DNA of 56,371 nt, filler included, from Dirinaria sp. TL-2023a (GCA_051941275.1; 4 parts of 4 records of this genome joined end to end with filler, not necessarily neighbours in it); one strand, 5' to 3'; positions 7,856 through 56,371 are shown, counted from the whole stretch's first letter. The notes: generated by a model from the sequence alone, not told the origin. Program-made: numbers and translations.

Positions 7856-10719
7856 CCAGGCGCTCACTACTCATAATCAAAAATTAGCTGAGACGCTACG
7901 TTTAATGGATTAATGAACTACCTGGCGCTTTCCGGCGCTTTATTACTGGCTGGAAATTAGTCTGAGAGGTAATGTATATCGTTGAGGAGATGTAGATATA
8001 GATCGTCTCGAAGCCGGCAGGTCACTCAAAGACTATGAAAACTCATGCTGGCATTGTGTCTATAAGGAAGAAGTGCCTATATATATTAGCTCATCACAAG
8101 TTCCGAGACGACAGACCTAATTTTCTGAACTAGGTGTCCACACAAGTGTGGTACTATTGTTGTTCCGATTATTCCCAAATACATCACAGGCTCATCGATG
8201 TTGTATACAGTCGAACCAATCTAAACTCCTGAGCCCAGAACTGATAGGCGGCTTTATGTTGCATAGAACTCAAAGTATTCGCTTGCATATATCATCATAT
8301 TGCATTTGGACAATCCGGTTCTGAGCTCGCTACATTATGATGGAACCTGATCCGTTTCTCAAGGATTTTCGGGTTTCTAGTCTAAGTAATTGCGATCTAA
8401 ACCGAGCACTACCTACTTTACCCAGATCTGGCTCATTCATAGTTTCCGGGACTACGTTCGGTAGTTTTATAGTCCTTGATCGCTACCGTTCTAGGGATAA
8501 TTACTTTGCGTTGCTCTTTGACACCGACTACCTTATACTATTTCTCCCCTTCCACCAAATAGTTCCTACTACCAGAGCTATCCTAAGTCTATGATAAACA
8601 AGGCGACAAGCGGCAGCCGTACCTTAACCTCGGCACAACAGTCATGTGAAGCAAGTTCTGATTCCCATTCATGAGTTTTGAAATGGCTGTCAAAGTACTA
8701 TTTGAGTAACTATTGGAGTAAAGGACTTGATCTAGCATTCATTATTGTATGTATATCCCTTCGTGAGTATTGTACGTATATGTAAACAATGGTACACGTG
8801 AGTAGAAAAGCGTACCTTGAGGCGTCTCCTTTTTAGAAGGTAGCAAAGGTAAAAAGCACTACTACCCTATGGAGACTATCTTGATGGATCTCCCCTAGGT
8901 GTGCATGAAAACTTCACGTACAATTCGCAGATGTGCTGCGACTCTACCTTTGAGGGCTTCGTGCATGAGACTCGAGACCGCATCGAGGCGGCAGGTTAAC
9001 ACCCCCAGATGGACAATTCTGCAATCTTGTGACGGCAGACCTCGAGGGACTTTCGGCAGGTCATGGAATGACTGCGAGCAGAGCCTCTGGTGAGGGATGA
9101 TCCACGATCCTTTGCGCGATCCTTTGCGCGATCAAGGACGGGATACGGGGCCCTTTGAGTCGCTGGCATTCTATTATTTCTATAGCGCTTGACTAATGGC
9201 TCCGCCGTTAAATTCCAGGGAAAGCAATTTGAAGTGGTGATTTCGCTTTGAAATCCGCCAGATTGAATCGTAGAGGTAGGCTACCACGCCAAGGAGCATC
9301 TAAAGCATGATGAAGACGAAGGTTATGAAGATGAGCAATTTCTTCTTCTGGCCCGGCCAGAACGGCTGATGGCGTACTCAACAGCTAGGACGAGCTCGAG
9401 GATTCATATACTATGCTTCATTCTGGAGTCAGGATGCTTACAATATGCGATAAGCGATCAAGAGCTTGGTTTCAACAGACGGTGATGGATTTGATGTGAG
9501 ATGGCTCCACGTGAGCTGGGCAGATTGATGTATGATGTCCAGCATCGGAACAGTGAGACTGGCTCCTGGTTGAAAACATGTTCATTACTCTGTTTATTAA
9601 CCGCGTACGTTCAAGGTAAGCAACCAGATAATGCCCTCGCGCCCTTGCGCATCGTATCGGATTCGTGCTACGATATCTCGTCATTTTCGGATTTTTATTG
9701 AGGGCCGAATTTCTAGTGGTGTCTATTATGGTGGCAGGATCATCCAAGATGTTTAGACCTGACCGTCAGCACCAGCGACGTAATGATCCGAGTATCATCT
9801 CGAGGAAGCATCGAGTAAATGATCGGTGATCTGTGTCGGCAAGCCGGATATACTCACGGCCCGCAGACCGACTTCTCTTCTAGTGACTGGACTTTTCCTA
9901 CTTCCCGTCTCTATCGCACTATACTTCTACTTTCCTATGGCAAAGCCCGACATACTACATCAATCAAACAGAAGGACCGTATAGCATCAACGTCTCTGGA
10001 CCAGCGTAAAGCATTAACCAGCTGTAATGCATGTCATGGCACTGTACTCGTACCACCACAATCATCAGTGTTCACCAAACACTGCCGTACATTAGAAAAC
10101 GGCAGCAGCCTTAGATAGGCACATTAACACCTCCAAAGAGTACGCTCAGTATTCCGCCTTGCCAAAACTACTTCACTTCCCGTGATAAGGTAGAACATGC
10201 CATATGATTAGCTCGCGCAATTGCGCATCGGTAGGTTTCGCGCTTACTGCGCCTGGAGATATGCGCATCCTAGCATCCAAGGAGCCAGTGGACTTTTTTC
10301 ATCGATTGGAACGTTTCTATCGGCATTGTGAAAGAGAAGAGTATGGCGCTGCGAACGCACCTTCCGCTCAGTGAAGCTCGAGTATGACCACATCCATGAG
10401 AAGTCCATGCAGGGATGGCATCCAAACGGAGAATTGGTTCTGTGATATAAGAGGTTCGGTCTCTCGTCAGAGAAAAAAAAAGTACTGTCGCCGGCTGCGT
10501 GATGTCTTCTCCCGGGAAGTTTTGCTTCAAGAGCCTTGACATTGCCACTAGTGAACCTCGCGAAACGCGGGTCGCCAAAGTGCATCTTTCCATCCTTCGT
10601 CTGGATCTATTGTTTATAATCTGCATAAAATGGCACATCGTCGTTCATCTCTCAGAATCCAAATCTACTTTCCATCTCCGTAAGCTTTGTGCTACGAATA
10701 TCTCACCTCTTCTGCGGTT

Positions 10720-45666: not shown

Positions 45667-46458
45667 GACGTACCACCCGTATACGCGTACTATGTTATAA
45701 AAGCAATAGAGTAATGGAATTTCCCACTTTTTATAGTATTTAATGACAGATATCAACAATATTATCATGGAATCGAGTTTGATATCGTCCGATTGGAGAG
45801 AAATAGCTGTAGCTCAGATTTCGATTAGTATTTCAGTTATAGAACTTGGTTCATCTGGTATTGGGATTGGTTAGATATTAATAGAATTCGATAAGGTGTT
45901 TATAAATTTAACGCTTCTATTCGCACAAAGATATGATAGCTTGAGATATATTGGATTGAACAGTGAAGTTGAATCTTTTGCGTGAAGTCGAGCCACAAAG
46001 TGGCGCAACGATAAGATGAATGTCTTGGCAGTCCTTACACGCTCTTCAGTACCTACGCGAATACTTTCTTGCAATAATCATTTCGTTGCTTTCATCGAGT
46101 CTCAGGACTCGGACTTGCTGTTCGCGTCACGATCACAAAAATTCAGGTTCAAAGATCGTGCACTATTGAAGTAAGTATTCACTCAGAAGAGCTTTTACTT
46201 ATGTCTAATTCACGCGTCTTCGAACTTCTTCTAATCTTTGCGCCTCGTTCTACTTTCACGATCTCGATAACTGACATATATCTATTAGTCTCTCCTCGAC
46301 TACTGAACATGGACCGTCGACGCCCTGTTGCGCTACCCTATAAAGCTTCAGTCGCACCACAGACTATATTTGCAAAAATTCGAAATGAAGATACTTTAAG
46401 CGTACTGGAATGCCTGGACTTTGATACTCGATCTCGATGAGAATGTCGGTTTCTCGAG

Positions 46459-48543
46459 ATGGCTTCTTCTACTATGAGCCTTAAAACCACCACCACTATT
46501 TCGCCAGATCCTGAAGCGAGGCTGTCTTCGCTTCTGCGGCGGCGGGAGCTTGGCTTGGAAAACGATAGCCGATTTACACAACAAAAGTTGAGATATAGAT
46601 CCATCGACAATCTTGCGCCGATAAGATCATGGAAAGGCGCATCTGGCGACATCGTCTCTGCGACTTGGAGTGCGGACTCTCAGTCTTACGCGTTAGGAGC
46701 TACAGCGACGTCGAATGTAGAAGATCTCCAATACAATCGCCCTCACAATCTACTCTTCGGGAACATCAGAGATAATAGTCTACGAGAGCTCGTGGATCAT
46801 CGTATTCCTAGGCCCCGACCAGATACAATTCCTAGTGGGCCCAATTCTTCAGAAGCAGTCTATGATACCTGCGATCCTATGATCTACAAAACTGTTGAGG
46901 ATGTGCGATTTTCTCCAACAGGACAAACACTATATTCTGCAAGCCACGATTCTACTGTAAAGGTGTGGGATAGCGACAATGATAAGGGAATACCAATCTG
47001 CACCAGTACTCTCATGCACGATGCGAATGTCACAGCGCTAGAAGTCTCGAAATTTTTTCCAAACACATTTGTTACCGCCTCTCATAACGTGAAAGATTCC
47101 ATTAGAGTTTACACCAAACAGTCAGAAGGATATATACATGTAACCTTCGAATCAGAACGAGCGCATGCCAAGCCGCAGCATGATATTCTCCCTGCATGCA
47201 TTCGATGGGGACTCGTACCGACAAACCAGCATCTCATGCTAGCTGGTTTCTTACGTTGGGGTGAACTACCTAATCATGACCCCGGACGGGAAGGTGACCT
47301 GTGTTTGTGGAACGTCGCGACCGGTGATAAGCTAAAGGTGGTTCCTTCTGCTCACAGCATATACACCGCGGCTTTCCATCCATTTTTAGACGCCTTTTCG
47401 ACAGGTGGGGCTGCTGGTATTAGGCTAACACATCGGCACACGACTCGAAGCGTCGTGCGAACCTGGGACAGACGGATGGCTTCCATGAGTTACGAATGCG
47501 AATGTCCTGCTCTGGATATGCAGGACTTGGTTTTTCATCCTCAGGAATCAAACATTCTCGCCGTAGGCTGCACAGACGGGTCAACGTATGTCTGGGATGT
47601 TCGAAAAGCGAATCATATACTTCATCGTTTGGAACATGGGGACCCAATCGCTGACTGGGATCAAAAATATGCCCAAACCCCCACCACACGCGAACAAGGC
47701 GATGGCGGCGTTAATATGACGCTTTGGGGTACTGGAAGGCATAATCTGTATACCGGCGCTACCGACGGCATGGTTAAGTGTTGGAATATCAACCGAGCTC
47801 CTGAAGATGCTTTCATCCGAAACGTTGCTCAGCTGCCTGCTGGGGTGTCATGCGGCTCTTTCTCCCCTGACTTCGTCACCCTGCTCGTTGGTGATTCTAC
47901 CGGTGGCGTATATCTATTGTCCTCCGATGCGGGAGGTGAATACCATTTTGATGATCACTCCGACAGCGCAGACGTGAGCACACAGAAGATAAAATTTATT
48001 CCAGCACCATGCGATGATTCGACTTACCCAACGGAGCAGCTTGGGTTAGGGCAACGCACAGCACGTGAGATGATCCGAAGCGGGCAGCTTATCATAGATC
48101 CAGAATTCGGAGTCGGGCAAGGACCAGCTTATGCTGGACCATATGCGAAATATGCGTATAAAGAGGGATCTACACGCCTTATGCGGGAGTATGAAAAGAG
48201 ACAGCCGGTCTCGAGGAAGGGACGGGTCCGTAACAATGCAGCAGCCCGGAACATCAAGGCCATGCTGGCAAGACGTCGCGAAGAGCTTGGATCGACTGAA
48301 GAGGATCCAGACATCATTGATCTGACTAGCGATATCGAAAATGATCCAATCGCGGCAAGGGTCGAGCTTATTGATTTGACTAGCGATACAGAAAAGGATC
48401 TGGTGGAGGAGAAGGAAAAGAGGGTCGACAGGAACGTTGTAGATGGGGAGGTTTGGGATGATGGTCCGATGGAAGATGATTATTGGTTCCCATACATGGA
48501 CCATGAGACTTTGCTGAGGTTGAAGGGCCAATACCCGTTCTAG
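46459..48543 (+). CDS. WD40 DDB1/Rik1-associated factor, Raf1/Dos1/Clr8 (DIM-9)-like
   Basis: 694-aa ORF with WD40 repeats (SASHDSTVKVWD, TGATDGMVKCWN) and two WDxR motifs (RTWDRR, YVWDVR). WKGASGDI and QYNRPHNLL recall the Raf1-like family. The true 5' end is uncertain. Confidence 0.75.
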   Translation: MASSTMSLKTTTTISPDPEARLSSLLRRRELGLENDSRFTQQKLRYRSIDNLAPIRSWKGASGDIVSATWSADSQSYALGATATSNVEDLQYNRPHNLLFGNIRDNSLRELVDHRIPRPRPDTIPSGPNSSEAVYDTCDPMIYKTVEDVRFSPTGQTLYSASHDSTVKVWDSDNDKGIPICTSTLMHDANVTALEVSKFFPNTFVTASHNVKDSIRVYTKQSEGYIHVTFESERAHAKPQHDILPACIRWGLVPTNQHLMLAGFLRWGELPNHDPGREGDLCLWNVATGDKLKVVPSAHSIYTAAFHPFLDAFSTGGAAGIRLTHRHTTRSVVRTWDRRMASMSYECECPALDMQDLVFHPQESNILAVGCTDGSTYVWDVRKANHILHRLEHGDPIADWDQKYAQTPTTREQGDGGVNMTLWGTGRHNLYTGATDGMVKCWNINRAPEDAFIRNVAQLPAGVSCGSFSPDFVTLLVGDSTGGVYLLSSDAGGEYHFDDHSDSADVSTQKIKFIPAPCDDSTYPTEQLGLGQRTAREMIRSGQLIIDPEFGVGQGPAYAGPYAKYAYKEGSTRLMREYEKRQPVSRKGRVRNNAAARNIKAMLARRREELGSTEEDPDIIDLTSDIENDPIAARVELIDLTSDTEKDLVEEKEKRVDRNVVDGEVWDDGPMEDDYWFPYMDHETLLRLKGQYPF

Positions 48544-48922: not shown

Positions 48923-51329
48923 ATGGCGTTCCTTGACCGTGCGAAGGAGATATCTGCTCCCCCTCCTGTGGGATCTCCACACTCGGTACCTGTGCCAAAG
49001 TCTGAAGTGCCTGGTCGAAGCGCAGTATACCGTCATTGGAGGTGTCAAGATGAACTTCTCCAGACCCTGGATCCTAACGTAAGTCAAGATACAGAGAAGC
49101 ACGATGTAATGTCAAGGAGCATGGAATTAATGTTGTGGCCAGATTACTACGGCACACCACATGTTCGAAGATGCAGGTAGGCGCAGCTGAACCGAAGTTG
49201 TACCCCTGTGCTAAATCATCTCTAGCGAATCGAAACCCTACGAACAAGTGCCTCGGGTCGCGACTGTATGATGCTGTCAAGAAGGACTATGGACCTTACA
49301 AATGGATAAACTATAGCACTGTGCAAAAACGAAGGGCTCATCTTGGTGTTGGTATTGTGGAGGCAAACAAGAGGGCTGGTGTTGATCAGCAAAAGTACGG
49401 AATAGGCCTGTGGTGCCAAAATAGGCCGGAATGGCAATTGACCGGTAAACCGTGCTCTTCCATGGGTGAATGAATTGGCTGACCATGCCTTAGATCTAGC
49501 GTGCATGTCCCAGGCTTTATACACTGTTTCCTTGTACGACACTCTGGGTCCTACAGCCGTCGAATACATTATCAACCATGCCCAGCTACCATGCATTGCT
49601 ACATCCCTTCCTCATATTCCAACACTCCTGAGATTGAAACCCAAATTATCATGCTTGAAAGTCATCATCTCGTTGGATACGCTGGACGACGGCGAGAAGC
49701 CGGGCCACTCTAAATATGATCTGCTTAAGGCTATAGCATCGGATGTTGGTGTTGATATATACTCGATACAGCAGGTAGAAGCCTTAGGAGAGTCCTTTGG
49801 TAGTCCTGTTTACCACGTCCCAGGTCCATCCGACCCAATTACCATCAACTACACCTCTGGCACCACTGGTAGGATGCTCCCTTTGCAAGCAGGGTATCCT
49901 TCGAGGCTAATTACAAGACCAGGCCCTCCTAAAGGTGTTGTACTGACCCACTCCGCCGCCGTAGCAGCAACCTCAAGCGGCCTCACCATTATGCCAAGTA
50001 GCGGTTCCGATATTATTATTTCCTACCTTCCGCTAGCTCATATATACGAAAGGGTAGCTGAACAAGGCGCTCTTTGGAGCGGCGCCGCCATTGGGTATTT
50101 CCATGGTGACGTGCTTGCTTTGGTGGACGACATGAAGCTCCTCCGGCCCACAGGCTTTATTTCTGTCCCGAGGCTCTACAACCGCTTCGGCGGCGCTATT
50201 CGTGCAGCCACAACCGATCAGCCAGGTATCAAAGGTGCTTTGGCAAGGCATGTGGTATCGACCAAGACAGCTTCTCTTCAGCAACCAGACTCGCCCACTG
50301 CAACAAACAGACATGCTTTGTATGATCGCATCTGGGGCCGAAAAGTCGCTGCAGCACTCGGTTTGGACCGAGCCAAGAATATGGTGTCCGGCTCTGCGCC
50401 TCTTGATCCTTCCCTTCAGACTTTTCTCAGGACCGTCCTAGGAAATCGCTTCGTCCAAGGTTATGGCTTGACTGAGACTTATGCTACCAGCCTGGCGCAG
50501 CTGACTGACGACTACACCACTGGCAGTTGCGGTGCCGTAACGCCAAGTAACGAAGTGTGCCTTGCCAGCGTGCCAGATATGGAATATCTTGTGACGGACC
50601 AGCCTCAGCCACGAGGGGAGTTGCTAGTGAGAGGCTATACGATGTTCTCCGGGTATTACAAGAACGAGGAAGACACCAAAAAATGCATGCTTCCTGATGG
50701 CTGGTTCCGCACGGGCGACATCGCCACCGTCGACTCTCGGGGCCGATTCAAGATCATTGACCGGATCAAGAACGTGCTGAAGCTGGCGCAGGGAGAGTAC
50801 ATCTCGCCGGAGCGCATCGAGAACGTCTACCTGTCTCACTTAAGCTTCCTCTCACAAGCGTACGTGCATGGCGACTCAGCGCAGGATTTCCTCGTCGCAC
50901 TCTTCGGCGTGTTACCGGAAATGTTTGCACCATTCGCGAGCAACGTCCTGGGTCGCAGCATCTCCGCGACGGACTTGCAGGCGATTGTAGCTGCTTGCAA
51001 GGATGCGAAAGTTCGAGCGGCCGTGGTCAAGGAGCTGGACAAGGTAGGGAAGAAGAACAAATTCGCGGGCTATGAGCGGGTGAGGAACTGCTACCTCTAC
51101 TTTGAACCGTTCACGATCGATAACGATCTCTTGACTCCGACGTAAGCTAAGCCCAGCCCCCTCTTGCTTCCAACATCCGTTGACCTCTCTTTTCTAATTG
51201 CGGCGCAAACGCAGGCTCAAACTCAAGAGACCGCAATGCGCGAAGAAATTCCGGAAGGAGCTCGATGAACTGTACGCCGAAACGTTGGCGGCGGGTGGCA
51301 GAGGAGGTAGCGTCAGAGCGAAACTATAG
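48923..51329 (+). CDS. Peroxisomal long-chain fatty acyl-CoA synthetase (Faa2/LACS7-like)
   Basis: Exons 48923-49078, 49143-49176, 49226-49444, 49494-49868, 49923-51141 and 51215-51329. AMP-binding YTSGTTG-PPKG, YLPLAHIYER, QGYGLTE, GWFRTGDI and IIDRIKNVLKLAQGEYISPE; C-terminal AKL is a PTS1. Confidence 0.93.
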
Positions 51330-52412
51330 CGCTCCGAGATTTGACGCGAAGATCCTGTACTCGTACATACATATGGGCATGGCATGCTGATGTGGGAGAG
51401 CTATCAGTTGCTTCTCTCCATCGGGGGCAAAAGGGAAAGGGGTGGCTTCGTCATAAACTTCAGTTACATAAGGTAACTAGCATTCTATTGGGAACATGAA
51501 TAGATCGACCTGTGACGAGAGAAAAGACGAGAAACGCACAAAAGCCGGGCCGCTTACCGATTGTCGAACCAGTTTCAGAACGCGAAATAAGACAAGTAAT
51601 TCGGAGTACTCCTTACCTTACCCCAGTAAGGTAATCTCTCCTTATTATATCTTCATACGACATCCTTGGTGATAGGTAATGTACTAGATTCACGTTCGTA
51701 CCTGAAATACGGGGTCCGCCTTCCATTTCGCACCCTTTTCTTCTTTTTTTTTTTTCATCGTTTCTTTTGCCTTCTTCCCACAGCAAAATCAATAGCACGG
51801 AGTTTTCTGCGTCTTCAGATTTTTAAAAAGGCCGGACGAAATCGCGATAATGCCAATTGTATTTTTCGGAATGTTTGTAGGGACCGCTGCTGCCTCTGTG
51901 GAAATATAAATGATGTTGACTGGGTCATGAAGATTGGACTGGAAGGTTCTTTATGGACAATACAGTGGAAAAGAGAAGGATCTTGAAACGGGCCTCAGAG
52001 CGTTGAGTGTTGGGCGCTATTCCCGTAAGATATATCCAAGGTAGGTGGTTACACCTCGATAGCCAATGCAGATACCTTACCTCCTGTTCAGGTGGGTGCT
52101 AGCCTCATTCCTTGACACTCACCTGCACACAAATTTCACTATGCGCGTAATGTGTGTGGAGGGAGCCTTCCGCTTGATGCTGTCAAGGCTGCCCCTCCAC
52201 TGAACCTTTCCAAATGTTTCCATCCGTATCGAATGTCGATTAGGCAGCCAATAATGTACGACCTGCGTGTGCAACCTCAAAGCGGGGTAGGGGCGGTAGA
52301 AAGATGGAAATGGAGGCGACGGTCTCGATTTCCCGGGCTCGATTTCCCGGTCTCGATCCTGCAAAAACCCTCTGCTGAGGCCAGATGTTGTAAGCCGAAA
52401 TCCTTTGGCTTG

Positions 52413-54162
52413 ATGTCAGGCGCTGAGGCTCTGGGTATCATCGCAAGTACCACCCAGCTTGCGGCCTACAGCATCAAAATCGTGCTTCACTTGCGTGAAC
52501 TCTGCAAAGAGGTACGCGGCATTCCTGGGCGAACGAACGAGCAAATAATTCAAGTCAGAGAGCTTATTGAAACAACCACCCTAATCGAGCAGCATCAATC
52601 GCTCCGGTCTCCAGCAATCGAAGCGCAGCTTCAGACTACTCTTGACGAAGCTCGATCCCTTTACAGCAATTTGAGAGATTTAGCAGGTAGATACAACACG
52701 AACCCACTCTTCCGATACTGGGACATTACCAAAGGGGCATCCGCAAAAGCAATACACTATCAATTAGAAAAACTGGACAGGCATAAGAGTACCTTGAAAT
52801 TGTGTATCAGTCTCGTCCACACTGATCTTCTCGCAAATATTGAGGGTGGAATCCGATCAGTGTCCAATAGTAGCATGCCGCGGCTCGCTGACCAGAGCCC
52901 ACCTCCATCAAGTACTGCTGTCAGTCTTCACACTGTTAGACATCTCGAGGGTCGAACTCTCTCCACCTAGACTCCTCCCACAACAATTTTGATTCGGCCA
53001 ATAAAACAAATGGCTAACGTTGATCCAGGCTACCCAAGGAGCAGGTATCAACACCACCTCAGCGCTTGTTCGAAAGATTGGAAACGAGTTGCTACCGGTC
53101 CCAGTCATGTCTGAAAACCGTGTAGAGAATACACTTCAAGCTGATACACGTACGGATATCTGAGCCTTTAGAGGAAGTCTTGCTAACTTAGTCAGCGGAG
53201 GCAAAGCAGTCAGCTCCGCAGAATCCTGCATTCCAATTTCAACGAGAGGTGACCTACTCTGGCAGTCATAGTGGTCACTTTTCCAATGTCCAGGGAGACC
53301 AAACATTCACAAACAGTAAGGGACTTTCCTACTGGATGCCGAACTCACTAGGACTGATAGCTGACTTCGCGCAGACTACGGACAGGAAAAGAATTCCAAG
53401 TTCAAGAAAATGCCAGAAGAAGAGCGTAACCACAAGCTGCATGATTATGCATTCGCAGGGAATAAGAAAGCTTTGAGCGCTTTGCTAAAAGCGGATGTCA
53501 ATGTGGAATACAGAGGGCCGAAAGGCAACACACCACTGCACCGAACTATCCCAGGTCATCATACCGAATGCGCTGCGCTCTTACTCGATTGTGCCGCAGA
53601 TGTAGATGCTCAAGGAGCTGGTAACGCCACTCCACTGATACTCTGCGCTCAACATGGAGACGACAAGACGGCAAAGTTGCTCCTTGAGAACGGTGCAAGT
53701 ACAGAAAAAAGAAACTCGTCTGGCGAAACAGCCCTTATGATTGCTTCGCGTGATCGACAATGGCTCATTGTCAGGTCTTTGCTCGAGTCTGGGGCCGATG
53801 TTCAGGCGGCTAATGATGCAGGCAAGACGGCTCTGATGCTTGCTTCTGACAATGGTCATCGCGAGGTAGTCAGTTTGCTCTTGGAAAAGGGGGCTCATGC
53901 TTAGGCAGAGACAAATCGCGGACGGACAGCATCAATGTTCGCTGCTGGTCATGGGCATGAGAAAGTTGTTCGAATCTTACTTCGGCATGGACCTGGGATC
54001 AATAAGGCTGATAGAACTGGGGGTAACACGGCTCTCATGTGGGCTGCTACGAATAGGCAATGGCTCGTCTATAATTTGCTTATTGAGGAGGGTGCAGATC
54101 AAGGAATGACTAATAAAGAAGGGCTGACAGCAGGTGACATAGCGAAAAGAAAGCAAAATTGA
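52413..54162 (+). CDS. SesA/HeLo-like N-terminal domain + amyloid-like motif + ~7 ankyrin repeats; in-frame TAG at 53902-53904
   Basis: Exons 52413-52919, 53029-53149, 53196-53315 and 53375-54162; all GT-AG, with branch points and matching phases. N-terminus MSGAEALGIIASTTQLAAY..LEKLDRHKSTLKLCI; ankyrin GxT(P/A)Lxx repeats continue in the same frame past the TAG. Confidence 0.8.
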
Positions 54163-56371
54163 ATAGTGGCTCAGACGAATGGGAATCATCGAAAAGCCAA
54201 TCTTTGATAGCTTTAATGAAAAAGGACAGTTTGCTTCGAAGCTCCATTGCCTTGTAGACCATCTCGAAGTCGAGGCTTTGAAGAGATGGGCCAATTCCAC
54301 CTCCCTAGTTGGATCAATTTGGTGAATAGGAGCTGGACTCTGTCTTAAAAAAGAGCTGGAAGCACGTTCAAGAATACTAGAGATCGAAGAGGTAGGAGAG
54401 AACGGTTAGGGTGTCAGTGGAATGCTTACTGGGCCTCTACGGAAAAGCCTCGGGTTCGTGTCGAAGCCGCAGGACTTGAAGCCGAGTTCTCTGTCCAAGG
54501 GGAAACCGCAGACGAAGTGTCTAGGCTTTATTAGATTGTCGGCCTATCAAAATCAGGTCTAATCCCTACTTACCTGCATTCTGGAGCATTGTTGCTCTCT
54601 ATCCATTCTTCGACTTTCTTTGATTCTGCCGAACTCCCTCTAATCTTAAAGCGAAGCAGTTGTTATCAGTTTCAATCAACTTTCTGGTCTGTTCGCTTTC
54701 TGACGATTGATTTCATCTCCTGCGGCTTAATGTTCTTTATCTAGACCCTATCAGCTTACACGTGTTCGACATTGCCGTGTCATTAGGGAAATAAGGGTCA
54801 GTATGAGAATAAATTGAAAGCCTTGTCTTAAATCCTCATCTCGGAGAGATTCAATTCGTTTTTCTCTTTCCATAGTATTTTTTACCTCTTATAGTGAAAG
54901 CGTTGGATCCTGAGTAATATGTAGCTCTATAAGTCAAGCTTTGAACGAACCTCGGTCGAAAAAGCTATTTAACGTCGCTTTGCGCTCAGTAGGGCTAAAT
55001 TGAGATAACATGTGTTTCAAGACGCTGTTAATTCATGGACCACTGGTGGAGGAGTTACACGGGGCCGCCGCGATCTTGCTTGCGCTCTCCTCCAAAAAAA
55101 AAAAAAAACAATCCGGGTGTTCAGTCCGAAAAAGAGACAGCAGCACTCACTAAGAGTAGTGACGGTGGACAAAAAGATTTATGACCAGAACAGCATCCAT
55201 CGTTCAAATGCATATGTAGACCCAGCTATTATCCCATGTTCCGGCCGGCTCAAAAATTTTTCTTGCAGAATCTCCTTCGAAGGGTTTGTTTTCTGCACAC
55301 AAAAGTGCAAGTGCCGTACGTACCTTATGTAGCATTCCGGTGAATCATTATGACTTTCGAGCTGAGTTGTTGCCTCCCAATTTTTTCTCTATTTCTCTCT
55401 CCAGCCCGTTTCGCCAGATATCATCCCTCACTACATGTACATTATAGCTTGAACCCCCCCCCCCTCCGTTCTCGGCAGAAGTTATTTGCTGCAAATCGAA
55501 TGAATAAATAGTAGTAAAGGTAGGTGAATTGAAATTGCCATTCGATCGAACTCGACTTGCTAACGGTAACAACAAATGTAGTTAATTATTGAAAGAGATA
55601 AACCAAAAAAAAAAAAAAAAAAAAAAAAATCCCTCGAATGGCTGAAACTGCAGAACAGTAAGGAAATGCGACAACCCGCTCGCTGTTTTGGTGTACATAC
55701 AGCCTTATCTAAGTTTTTCTTTGGTAAGCCTAGTTTATTGAGGGAGACAAACCCCCCTGACGAGTACGTATATCATGAAAAGGGGCCTGCTGCTGAAATT
55801 CGGATGAGAAAGATTTAGCGCGGAGCATCTGAAGGCATTTCAAAAAAAAATATTATTATTATTGTACATAGTTTACCTTGTGATTGCGGGTGTACATAGG
55901 TACGCGCTAAATGTTAGATCACAGCCAATCGGACGCTCATCCGAAAGATCAGTACCCTCGGACGAGGAGTACTCCGTACCTTAGTTCTAACACACCCGAC
56001 GGGCACGGGCATCTCCCGTCGCTAAAACGCATGTATGTACCTTATGTATGTATGTAATTTGTACCTTGCATGCCCCGCATTCATCAAACAAATTATTCAC
56101 CCTGTGCTTAGGTCGTCATTCCTTTTCAATACATCGAAATTAAATGAATGTAATTTGTCTATGAATCTCTCTTTTCACTTCACTCATTTATTCTTCCCCC
56201 CCCCAAAAAAAAAGCACCCAGCAATCCACTAGAAATTAAACCCACACACAACAACAGAATGTGTAACAACCCTTTTCTGTGAAGCGATTTCTTTTCCCAA
56301 ACAACAACAAAAACACGGAGAAACCGCGCTACATTCCACCGAACGACGACCCCTAAACATCCACCCACCAC

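Follow-up and report, generated by a model that had tools for sequence, protein, structure and literature searches.

A putative SesA/HeLo-like executioner fused to ankyrin repeats without a nucleotide-binding oligomerisation domain, interrupted by an in-frame stop codon, in Dirinaria sp. TL-2023a

Introduction

In proteins related to the one considered here, the SesA/HeLo-like-type domain is a membrane-targeting executioner of cell death. We analysed a gene at positions 52413-54162 on the plus strand of a 56,371-nucleotide stretch of DNA from Dirinaria sp. TL-2023a (that whole stretch is called the window below), in which a helical domain that we assign to this superfamily is followed by a linker and an array of ankyrin (ANK) repeats. 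An earlier reading of the same DNA, referred to here as the original prediction, had proposed that an effector, an amyloid motif and an ankyrin sensor are combined in one chain that lacks a nucleotide-binding oligomerisation domain (NOD). The NOD-less coupling of effector and ankyrin repeats stood up to our analysis, whereas the amyloid motif did not. We favour, with a probability of roughly 0.6, a SesA executioner joined to an ankyrin regulator on the plan of MLKL, of which the copy studied is a truncated allele or a young pseudogene.

Two set-ups have been described for such effectors, which either carry a prion-like tail and are encoded beside a templating NOD-like receptor (NLR) or form the N-terminal domain of an all-in-one NLR (PMC3321046), and the SesA and HeLo-like annotations have been merged (PMC4986451, PMC12258605). 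SesA of Nectria haematococca (PF17107) resembles the product of the window gene in its helical domain at the very N terminus, which is of the same superfamily by transitive homology, and in the short repeat-type prion-like extension that follows this domain in many relatives of the gene (PMC3321046). However, SesA carries a sigma motif and adjoins an NLR (het-eN), whereas the window gene has neither and is fused to an ankyrin array instead. HET-S and HeLo-like effectors bear two repeats of the HET-s-related amyloid motif (HRAM) and have an NLR partner, such as NWD2; in the window gene, ankyrin repeats are preceded by a single such repeat at most, and one that cannot be recognised. The hallmarks of HRAMs are a 21-residue unit with Gly at position 19 and hydrophobic residues at positions 5, 8, 10, 16 and 18, usually present as a pair of repeats, with His at position 3 in HRAM3 and Gln at position 16 in HRAM5 (PMC4518210). 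Single HRAM-like motifs have been reported on PNP_UDP effectors (PMC9815663). All-in-one fungal NLRs, in which a SesA/HeLo-like domain precedes NACHT or NB-ARC and then ANK, WD or TPR repeats, share the N-terminal family and the kind of C-terminal repeat with the window gene, but the latter has no NOD and its linker of about 100 residues is too small to hold one. MLKL, which consists of a four-helix-bundle executioner, a brace and a regulatory pseudokinase, offers an analogy in that an N-terminal killing module and a C-terminal regulator occupy one NOD-less chain, the putative regulatory domain being an ankyrin array here instead of a pseudokinase. A kinship between MLKL and HeLo-like domains has been reported (PMC9815663).

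Assignment of the N-terminal domain

Exon 1 (52413-52919, 169 residues) opens with the ATG at 52413, its product beginning with MSGAEALGIIASTTQLA; residues 1-153 (52413-52871) constitute the helical domain and the linker starts thereafter. AlphaFold2 with the family alignment predicted a five-helix bundle with a predicted local distance difference test (pLDDT) value of 85.9 and helices at residues 3-33, 39-60, 67-96, 98-107 and 109-153, confirming the helical domain of about 150 residues that had been read from the DNA. An exhaustive phmmer search with exon 1 returned 203 representatives at E<=1e-3, mostly proteins of 150-350 residues with the domain starting at residue 1. SesA (PF17107) matched at E<=0.01 in 40 of 138 aligned relatives, PigL_N (the former Helo_like_N) in 6 and ankyrin repeats in 4. 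The curated SesA cut-off of 26.3 bits was passed by 6 of 117 rescanned relatives, including P0023 (27.4 bits) and P0034 (28.6 bits), to which exon 1 is related with E values of 4.2e-24 and 5.1e-20, respectively. The family hidden Markov model (HMM) scored 178.5 bits on the exon 1 open reading frame (ORF), and the closest ESM Atlas clusters bear PigL_N in 28% and SesA in 15%. A search of PDB sequences with the family profile gave two chance-level rows only (E of 0.18 and 9.5), that is, no sequence kin among the solved chains. Because close relatives pass the SesA cut-off, the domain is filed under the SesA/HeLo-like superfamily (PF17107/PF17111) by transitive sequence homology, not by fold, even though its own sequence has no Pfam match. 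The predicted class is thus supported at the level of the family but was not recovered from the Dirinaria sequence itself.

An ankyrin array interrupted by a single stop codon

The first part of exon 4 (53375-53901) comprises the end of a linker segment described below (to 53382), a short linker and, from about 53428, an ankyrin N-cap and four repeats. It is followed by an in-frame TAG at 53902-53904, in a loop between ankyrin repeats inside the array (LLLEKGAHA-stop-AETNRGRTA), where the public protein model ends. Beyond the TAG, the second part of exon 4 (53905-54162) keeps the frame open for 85 codons to the TGA at 54160-54162 and encodes two further ankyrin repeats and the C-cap. In Pfam, Ank_2 matched with E = 4.7e-31 upstream and 1.9e-12 downstream of the TAG, and Ank with 4.3e-28 in four stretches before it. 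We counted seven repeats and a C-cap by eye, and the tandem 33-residue periodicity of ankyrin repeats (Pfam CL0465) was found. The ankyrin repeats of the original prediction are therefore present on both sides of the TAG, and the array of about seven is there, but the stop codon that cuts it had been overlooked.

A sense residue occupies the TAG position in all three homologues compared (Glu in P0002, Asp in P0026 and His in P0005). The TAG is the sole lesion in 511 codons, with no frameshift and no second stop, and the composition is not like that left by repeat-induced point mutation (RIP), as TpA/ApT is 0.68 in 52001-54000 and the dinucleotide indices around the gene are ordinary; RIP was accordingly rejected as the source of the stop. 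We also considered a short intron that would remove the TAG in frame (GT at 53866 or 53869 to AG at 53904; 39 or 36 nucleotides, respectively) and rejected it because it would be too short for a fungus, shows no branch site and would take out the second helix of one ankyrin repeat. Since the TAG is the only lesion and the composition is not RIP-like, it goes back to a recent nonsense mutation, a polymorphism or an assembly error. Translation would stop after the N-cap and four of the seven repeats, with loss of the last two repeats and the C-cap, and the present copy is a truncated allele or a young pseudogene.

A plausible alternative explanation is that the locus is a decaying pseudogene, inactivated by the nonsense codon, in which the odd linker segment represents a degraded HRAM repeat. 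The sense residue in every homologue compared and the departure of the segment from the family repeat profile (see below) speak for decay. On the other hand, a single lesion, an open frame with good ankyrin scores for 85 codons past it and the ordinary composition speak against it, as does the truncated product itself, which retains the N-cap and four repeats and is the publicly annotated protein; the TAG could also stem from misassembly or polymorphism in the metagenome-assembled genome (MAG). We consider decay a serious possibility, although it falls short of an even chance.

Absence of a NOD in the gene and its homologues

No P-loop, NACHT or NB-ARC domain was found in the gene with Pfam, where about 100 residues separate the helical domain from the first ankyrin repeat, and Pfam scans of gene and window bore out the predicted absence. 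The same NOD-less plan of this N terminus and ankyrin repeats is found in P0002 (Lecanora helva), P0005 (Pyrenodesmia) and P0026, and the ankyrin array of the window gene follows that of P0026 collinearly along its full length, up to the C terminus. A NOD occurs in only 2 of the 138 relatives, namely P0123 (1024 residues; SesA, NPHP3_N/NACHT-type and ANK) and P0092 (SesA and NB-ARC). In the domain tree, these two are separated from the clade of the window gene, on the other main branch. The window gene itself groups with P0002, P0006 and P0007 with a Shimodaira-Hasegawa-like approximate likelihood ratio test (SH-aLRT) value of 99, and P0026 has a different position within the same clade, which is large and poorly resolved. 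The original prediction had named the deletion of a NACHT domain in a decaying pseudogene as an outcome that would overturn it. The shared plan of the homologues, the tree placement and the collinear ankyrin arrays argue, as far as sequence comparison goes, that lichen fungi possess an established NOD-less lineage beside HRAM-tailed paralogues and that the NOD-less form does not stem from a recent NACHT deletion.

Exons and introns

Judged by sequence comparison, the four-exon gene at 52413-54162 is real. Five proteins, every one from lichen-forming Lecanoromycetes, were retrieved with exon 1 in a word-index search. P0001 (Dirinaria sp. TL-2023a MAG, 355 residues) is identical across exon 1 (100%) and therefore represents this gene in the public annotation. 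P0002 (Lecanora helva, 426 residues) is 71% identical and has counterparts of exons 2 and 3, including GFQFQDKVEFSGYHAGHFSN; its source gives it the name 'Actin-related protein 3', but no such domain is present.

Intron 1 (52920-53028, 109 nucleotides; GTCAGT...CTAAC...CAG) is followed by exon 2 (53029-53149), which encodes linker and to which tblastn aligned P0002 from residue 168 on in the same frame. Intron 2 (53150-53195, 46 nucleotides; GTACGG...CTAAC...TCAG) cannot be retained because it contains an in-frame TGA. Exon 3 (53196-53315) encodes more linker and a G/S/H/aromatic-rich segment, FQFQREV...TFTN from 53231, and intron 3 (53316-53374, 59 nucleotides; GTAAGG...CTGAC...GCAG) leads to exon 4. 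All three introns have GT..AG ends and a branch-point-like CTAAC or CTGAC 10-20 nucleotides upstream of the AG. The original prediction had joined the four pieces on the grounds of phase-compatible introns. These exons and introns are present and backed by homology, but phase compatibility is in itself weak evidence because, in a splice-site scan, 282 GT/AG combinations gave a frame with no stop codons other than the TAG and the terminal TGA. We therefore provisionally accepted exons 2 and 3 on homology, as P0002 aligns in frame to exon 2 and bears the same linker segment. The exon 1/2 junction (SSTA/ATQ) is collinear with SSITATQ of P0002, and Y[GE]Q[EQ], right after the acceptor of intron 3, is kept in P0002 and P0005.

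In P0001, by contrast, a single 424-nucleotide intron (52951-53374) skips exons 2 and 3, so that the linker segment is absent from the public protein. If that model were right, both exons would be intronic and the gene would encode a SesA-like domain and ankyrin repeats with no such segment. This is the form in which the protein was deposited, and many GT/AG combinations preserve the frame. However, it requires the donor GTCGAA at 52951, a poorer site than GTCAGT at 52920. In addition, the Lecanora protein, which was annotated independently, shows in-frame conservation of exons 2 and 3, and each of the short introns has a branch-point-like CTAAC or CTGAC. We regard the public model as improbable.

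An ATG at 53409 (KKMPEEER...) lies just ahead of the ankyrin N-cap, and an ankyrin-only product from this internal start is formally possible; both halves are found in one protein in four independent gene models of four species. About 55 nucleotides upstream of the start codon, a 14-nucleotide unit, CGGTCTCGATTTCC, is tandemly repeated at 52320-52357 (2.7 copies, 91% matches).

The linker segment and the HRAM-like repeats of relatives

The segment FQFQREV...NNYG described in the original prediction exists (53231-53315 plus 53375-53382), and it stands where relatives carry HRAM-like repeats. Full-length relatives commonly end, after the same domain, in two or three 21-residue HRAM-like units (P0003, P0004, P0015, P0028, P0069, P0078, P0089, P0090, P0091, P0098 and P0136). 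P0003 (Letrouitia), P0015 and P0028 share the plan of HET-S and HeLo-like effectors, with a helical domain of about 155 residues, a linker and two or three 21-residue repeats with Gly19 and Asp/Asn20, in about 290-340 residues in total. In the repeat unit of the relatives, position 3 is often His, 5 is Tyr or Phe, 18 is often Asn, 19 is Gly and 20 is Asp or Asn. Gln occupies position 16 in 11 of the 20 repeats used as seeds and in all 9 non-seed repeats; the seed pattern fixed positions 5, 8, 19 and 20, so that only the remaining positions count as free evidence. The repeat was detected at an independent E value (iE) of <=0.01 in 15 proteins of the 154 sequences searched, 12 of which had supplied seeds. 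The repeats of the relatives have HRAM features, whereas the single-copy Dirinaria segment does not; they differ from HRAMs in having Gln16 and Asn18 where HRAMs have hydrophobic residues, and Pfam HET-s_218-289 matched none of the relatives tested at E<=0.05. Repeat-bearing SesA-like relatives often end in a conserved ...EAI[KR]AF[FY] tail. Two repeat-bearing examples are from the lichen-forming Letrouitia (P0003) and Wetmoreana (P0004). In the latter (811 residues), a complete SesA-like protein with two repeats follows an N-terminal half that resembles threonine synthase (PF00291, PF14821); P0004 is probably a merged gene model.

The segment could itself be a working amyloid motif, so that effector, motif and sensor would form one chain templated by an NLR or by the HRAM paralogues. 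Its position matches that of the two or three 21-residue repeats of relatives, which have the published HRAM features, and single-copy HRAM-like motifs on effectors are on record (PMC9815663). It is rich in Gly, Ser, Asn, Gln and aromatic residues, free of proline and conserved with Lecanora: the core is identical to P0002 at 13 of 19 residues, and identity is 52% over 31 residues as compared with 36% and 20% in the flanks. In P0002, the corresponding stretch is predicted to be disordered (pLDDT 32-45). Furthermore, the ANK-bearing homologue from Pyrenodesmia (P0005) contains a single 21-mer that fits the repeat pattern (6.4 bits, iE 0.13); on comparison of P0005 with the HRAM tails, 44 of 300 shuffles reached its best score and 5 of 300 its top-five mean.

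Despite these likenesses, the family repeat HMM missed the Dirinaria segment, the best match in the whole spliced protein being -1.6 bits in the ankyrin part. In Smith-Waterman alignments with 20 HRAM tails, the Dirinaria score was reached by 127 of 300 composition-preserving shuffles and that of Lecanora by 232 of 300. The spacing of the segment differs by two residues between Dirinaria and Lecanora just before and after Gly-Asp, and P0026 has the same architecture but lacks any such segment. Nor was a partner found near the gene, since no NOD gene was present in the 52 kb upstream or the 2.2 kb downstream and the repeat HMM gave nothing above 8.0 bits (iE 0.45) in six frames of the window. 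When a large protein collection was searched with a profile built from the three linker segments, P0002 and P0005 were the sole matches, which is weak evidence because the search used a word index. The proposed amyloid signalling role of the segment was thus not supported, as the repeat profile misses it and shuffled sequences so often match its score, and we consider a working amyloid motif unlikely. The segment may be a remnant of a HET-s-related amyloid repeat, and any amyloid function of it would be speculative, read as it is from sequence. We also compared the sigma (GxGxQF/GGTQN), PP (NxGxQxGxN) and PUASM (FxGxGxQxxGxGxF) motifs with the segment by eye, and none fits. A complex prediction with four copies of the exon 3 peptide scored 0.02, which carries no weight either way on self-assembly.

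In a further variant, the segment would be a divergent single-rung amyloid motif that links NOD-less SesA-ankyrin proteins to the HRAM signalling of the paralogues with two or three repeats. We hold this to be very doubtful. If it were true, such proteins could provide an additional executioner gated by ankyrin repeats, or they could cap fibrils and so end or tune their growth. They would add a third type of architecture to the effector/NLR pair and the all-in-one NLR, within a symbiotic fungal lineage for which no description of amyloid signalling was found.

Search for a partner and genomic neighbourhood

The original prediction had suggested that the partner could be an NLR elsewhere with the same motif. 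None was found in the window or by the motif-profile search, the latter with the limit given above. Seventy-one other ORFs of at least 110 residues in the window gave no match to NACHT, NB-ARC, AAA or another signal transduction ATPase with numerous domains (STAND) NTPase at E<=1e-5. The family HMM matched this gene alone, that is, no paralogue is present in the window. A homologue search with residues 1-262 of P0002 returned only P0002 and P0001, within the limits of a word index. The top match of the repeat HMM outside the gene, at 8592-8738 on the minus strand (...YSNSTLTAISKLMNGNQ; 8.0 bits, iE 0.45), is probably due to chance, and no NOD or SesA-like ORF lies near it.

The neighbouring genes are ordinary and include an AMP-binding enzyme (49442-51142), a WD40 protein (46441-48540), COG4, a TAF1-type DUF3591 protein and a chitin synthase. 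Downstream of the gene, the remaining 2.2 kb of the window (54163-56371) have a G+C content of 0.42-0.44, compared with about 0.50, with no ORF of at least 110 residues and none that is convincing; long A/T homopolymer runs occur at about 55600-55640.

Discussion

We propose that the helical N-terminal domain of about 153 residues would act as the executioner and that a linker of about 100 residues, predicted to be disordered in P0002, would connect it to seven ankyrin repeats with no intervening NOD. The ankyrin domain would be a regulatory or sensing module, which may restrain the helical executioner as long as no ligand or partner is bound. We infer these roles from the analogy with MLKL and from the established role of HeLo-type domains.

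Several observations weigh against this interpretation. Control of the executioner by the ankyrin repeats is pure inference from analogy. Exon 1 on its own gave no Pfam match to SesA, PigL_N or HeLo at E<=1. The four-exon model rests on sequence comparison, and exons 2 and 3 are missing from the public one. Because of the premature TAG, the gene may have no function in this organism. Structural comparison was equivocal as well: the top 30 of 48,161 chains in a VIA structure search included immune and necroptotic helical bundles, with Z scores of 10.9 for the Sw-5b N-terminal domain, 10.1 for Rx-CC, 9.2 and 9.1 for MLKL, 8.0 for NRG1 CC-R, 8.0 for AtMLKL3 and 7.8 for MLA13, but all Z scores are below about 13, a level that helical bundles reach through their common arrangement. 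This holds for both MLKL matches (4btf with Z of 9.2 and a root-mean-square deviation of 2.6 over 99 aligned residues; 6ux8 with Z of 9.1), which fall in the chance range for helical bundles. The HeLo domain of HET-S was not among the best 50 rows of the VIA search, and Foldseek gave no match in the PDB at E<=1e-3. Finally, the ANK-bearing proteins do not form one clade, as the two-repeat protein P0003 and the ANK-bearing P0005 group together with an SH-aLRT of 99.

No NOD-less effector-ankyrin protein was found described in the passages of the literature consulted, and a mention may exist elsewhere. The same holds for amyloid motifs or amyloid signalling in lichen fungi; in the Xanthoria preprint, the word 'amyloid' occurs 0 times. 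The weight of the Dirinaria locus itself is lessened by the premature stop and by the unsupported motif. SesA-like proteins with two or three HRAM-like repeats are nevertheless encoded by lichen-forming Lecanoromycetes, and amyloid-based signalling therefore probably exists in lichen mycobionts. A conserved coupling of effector and ankyrin repeats without an NTPase switch would represent a third set-up, with a control logic nearer to that of MLKL.

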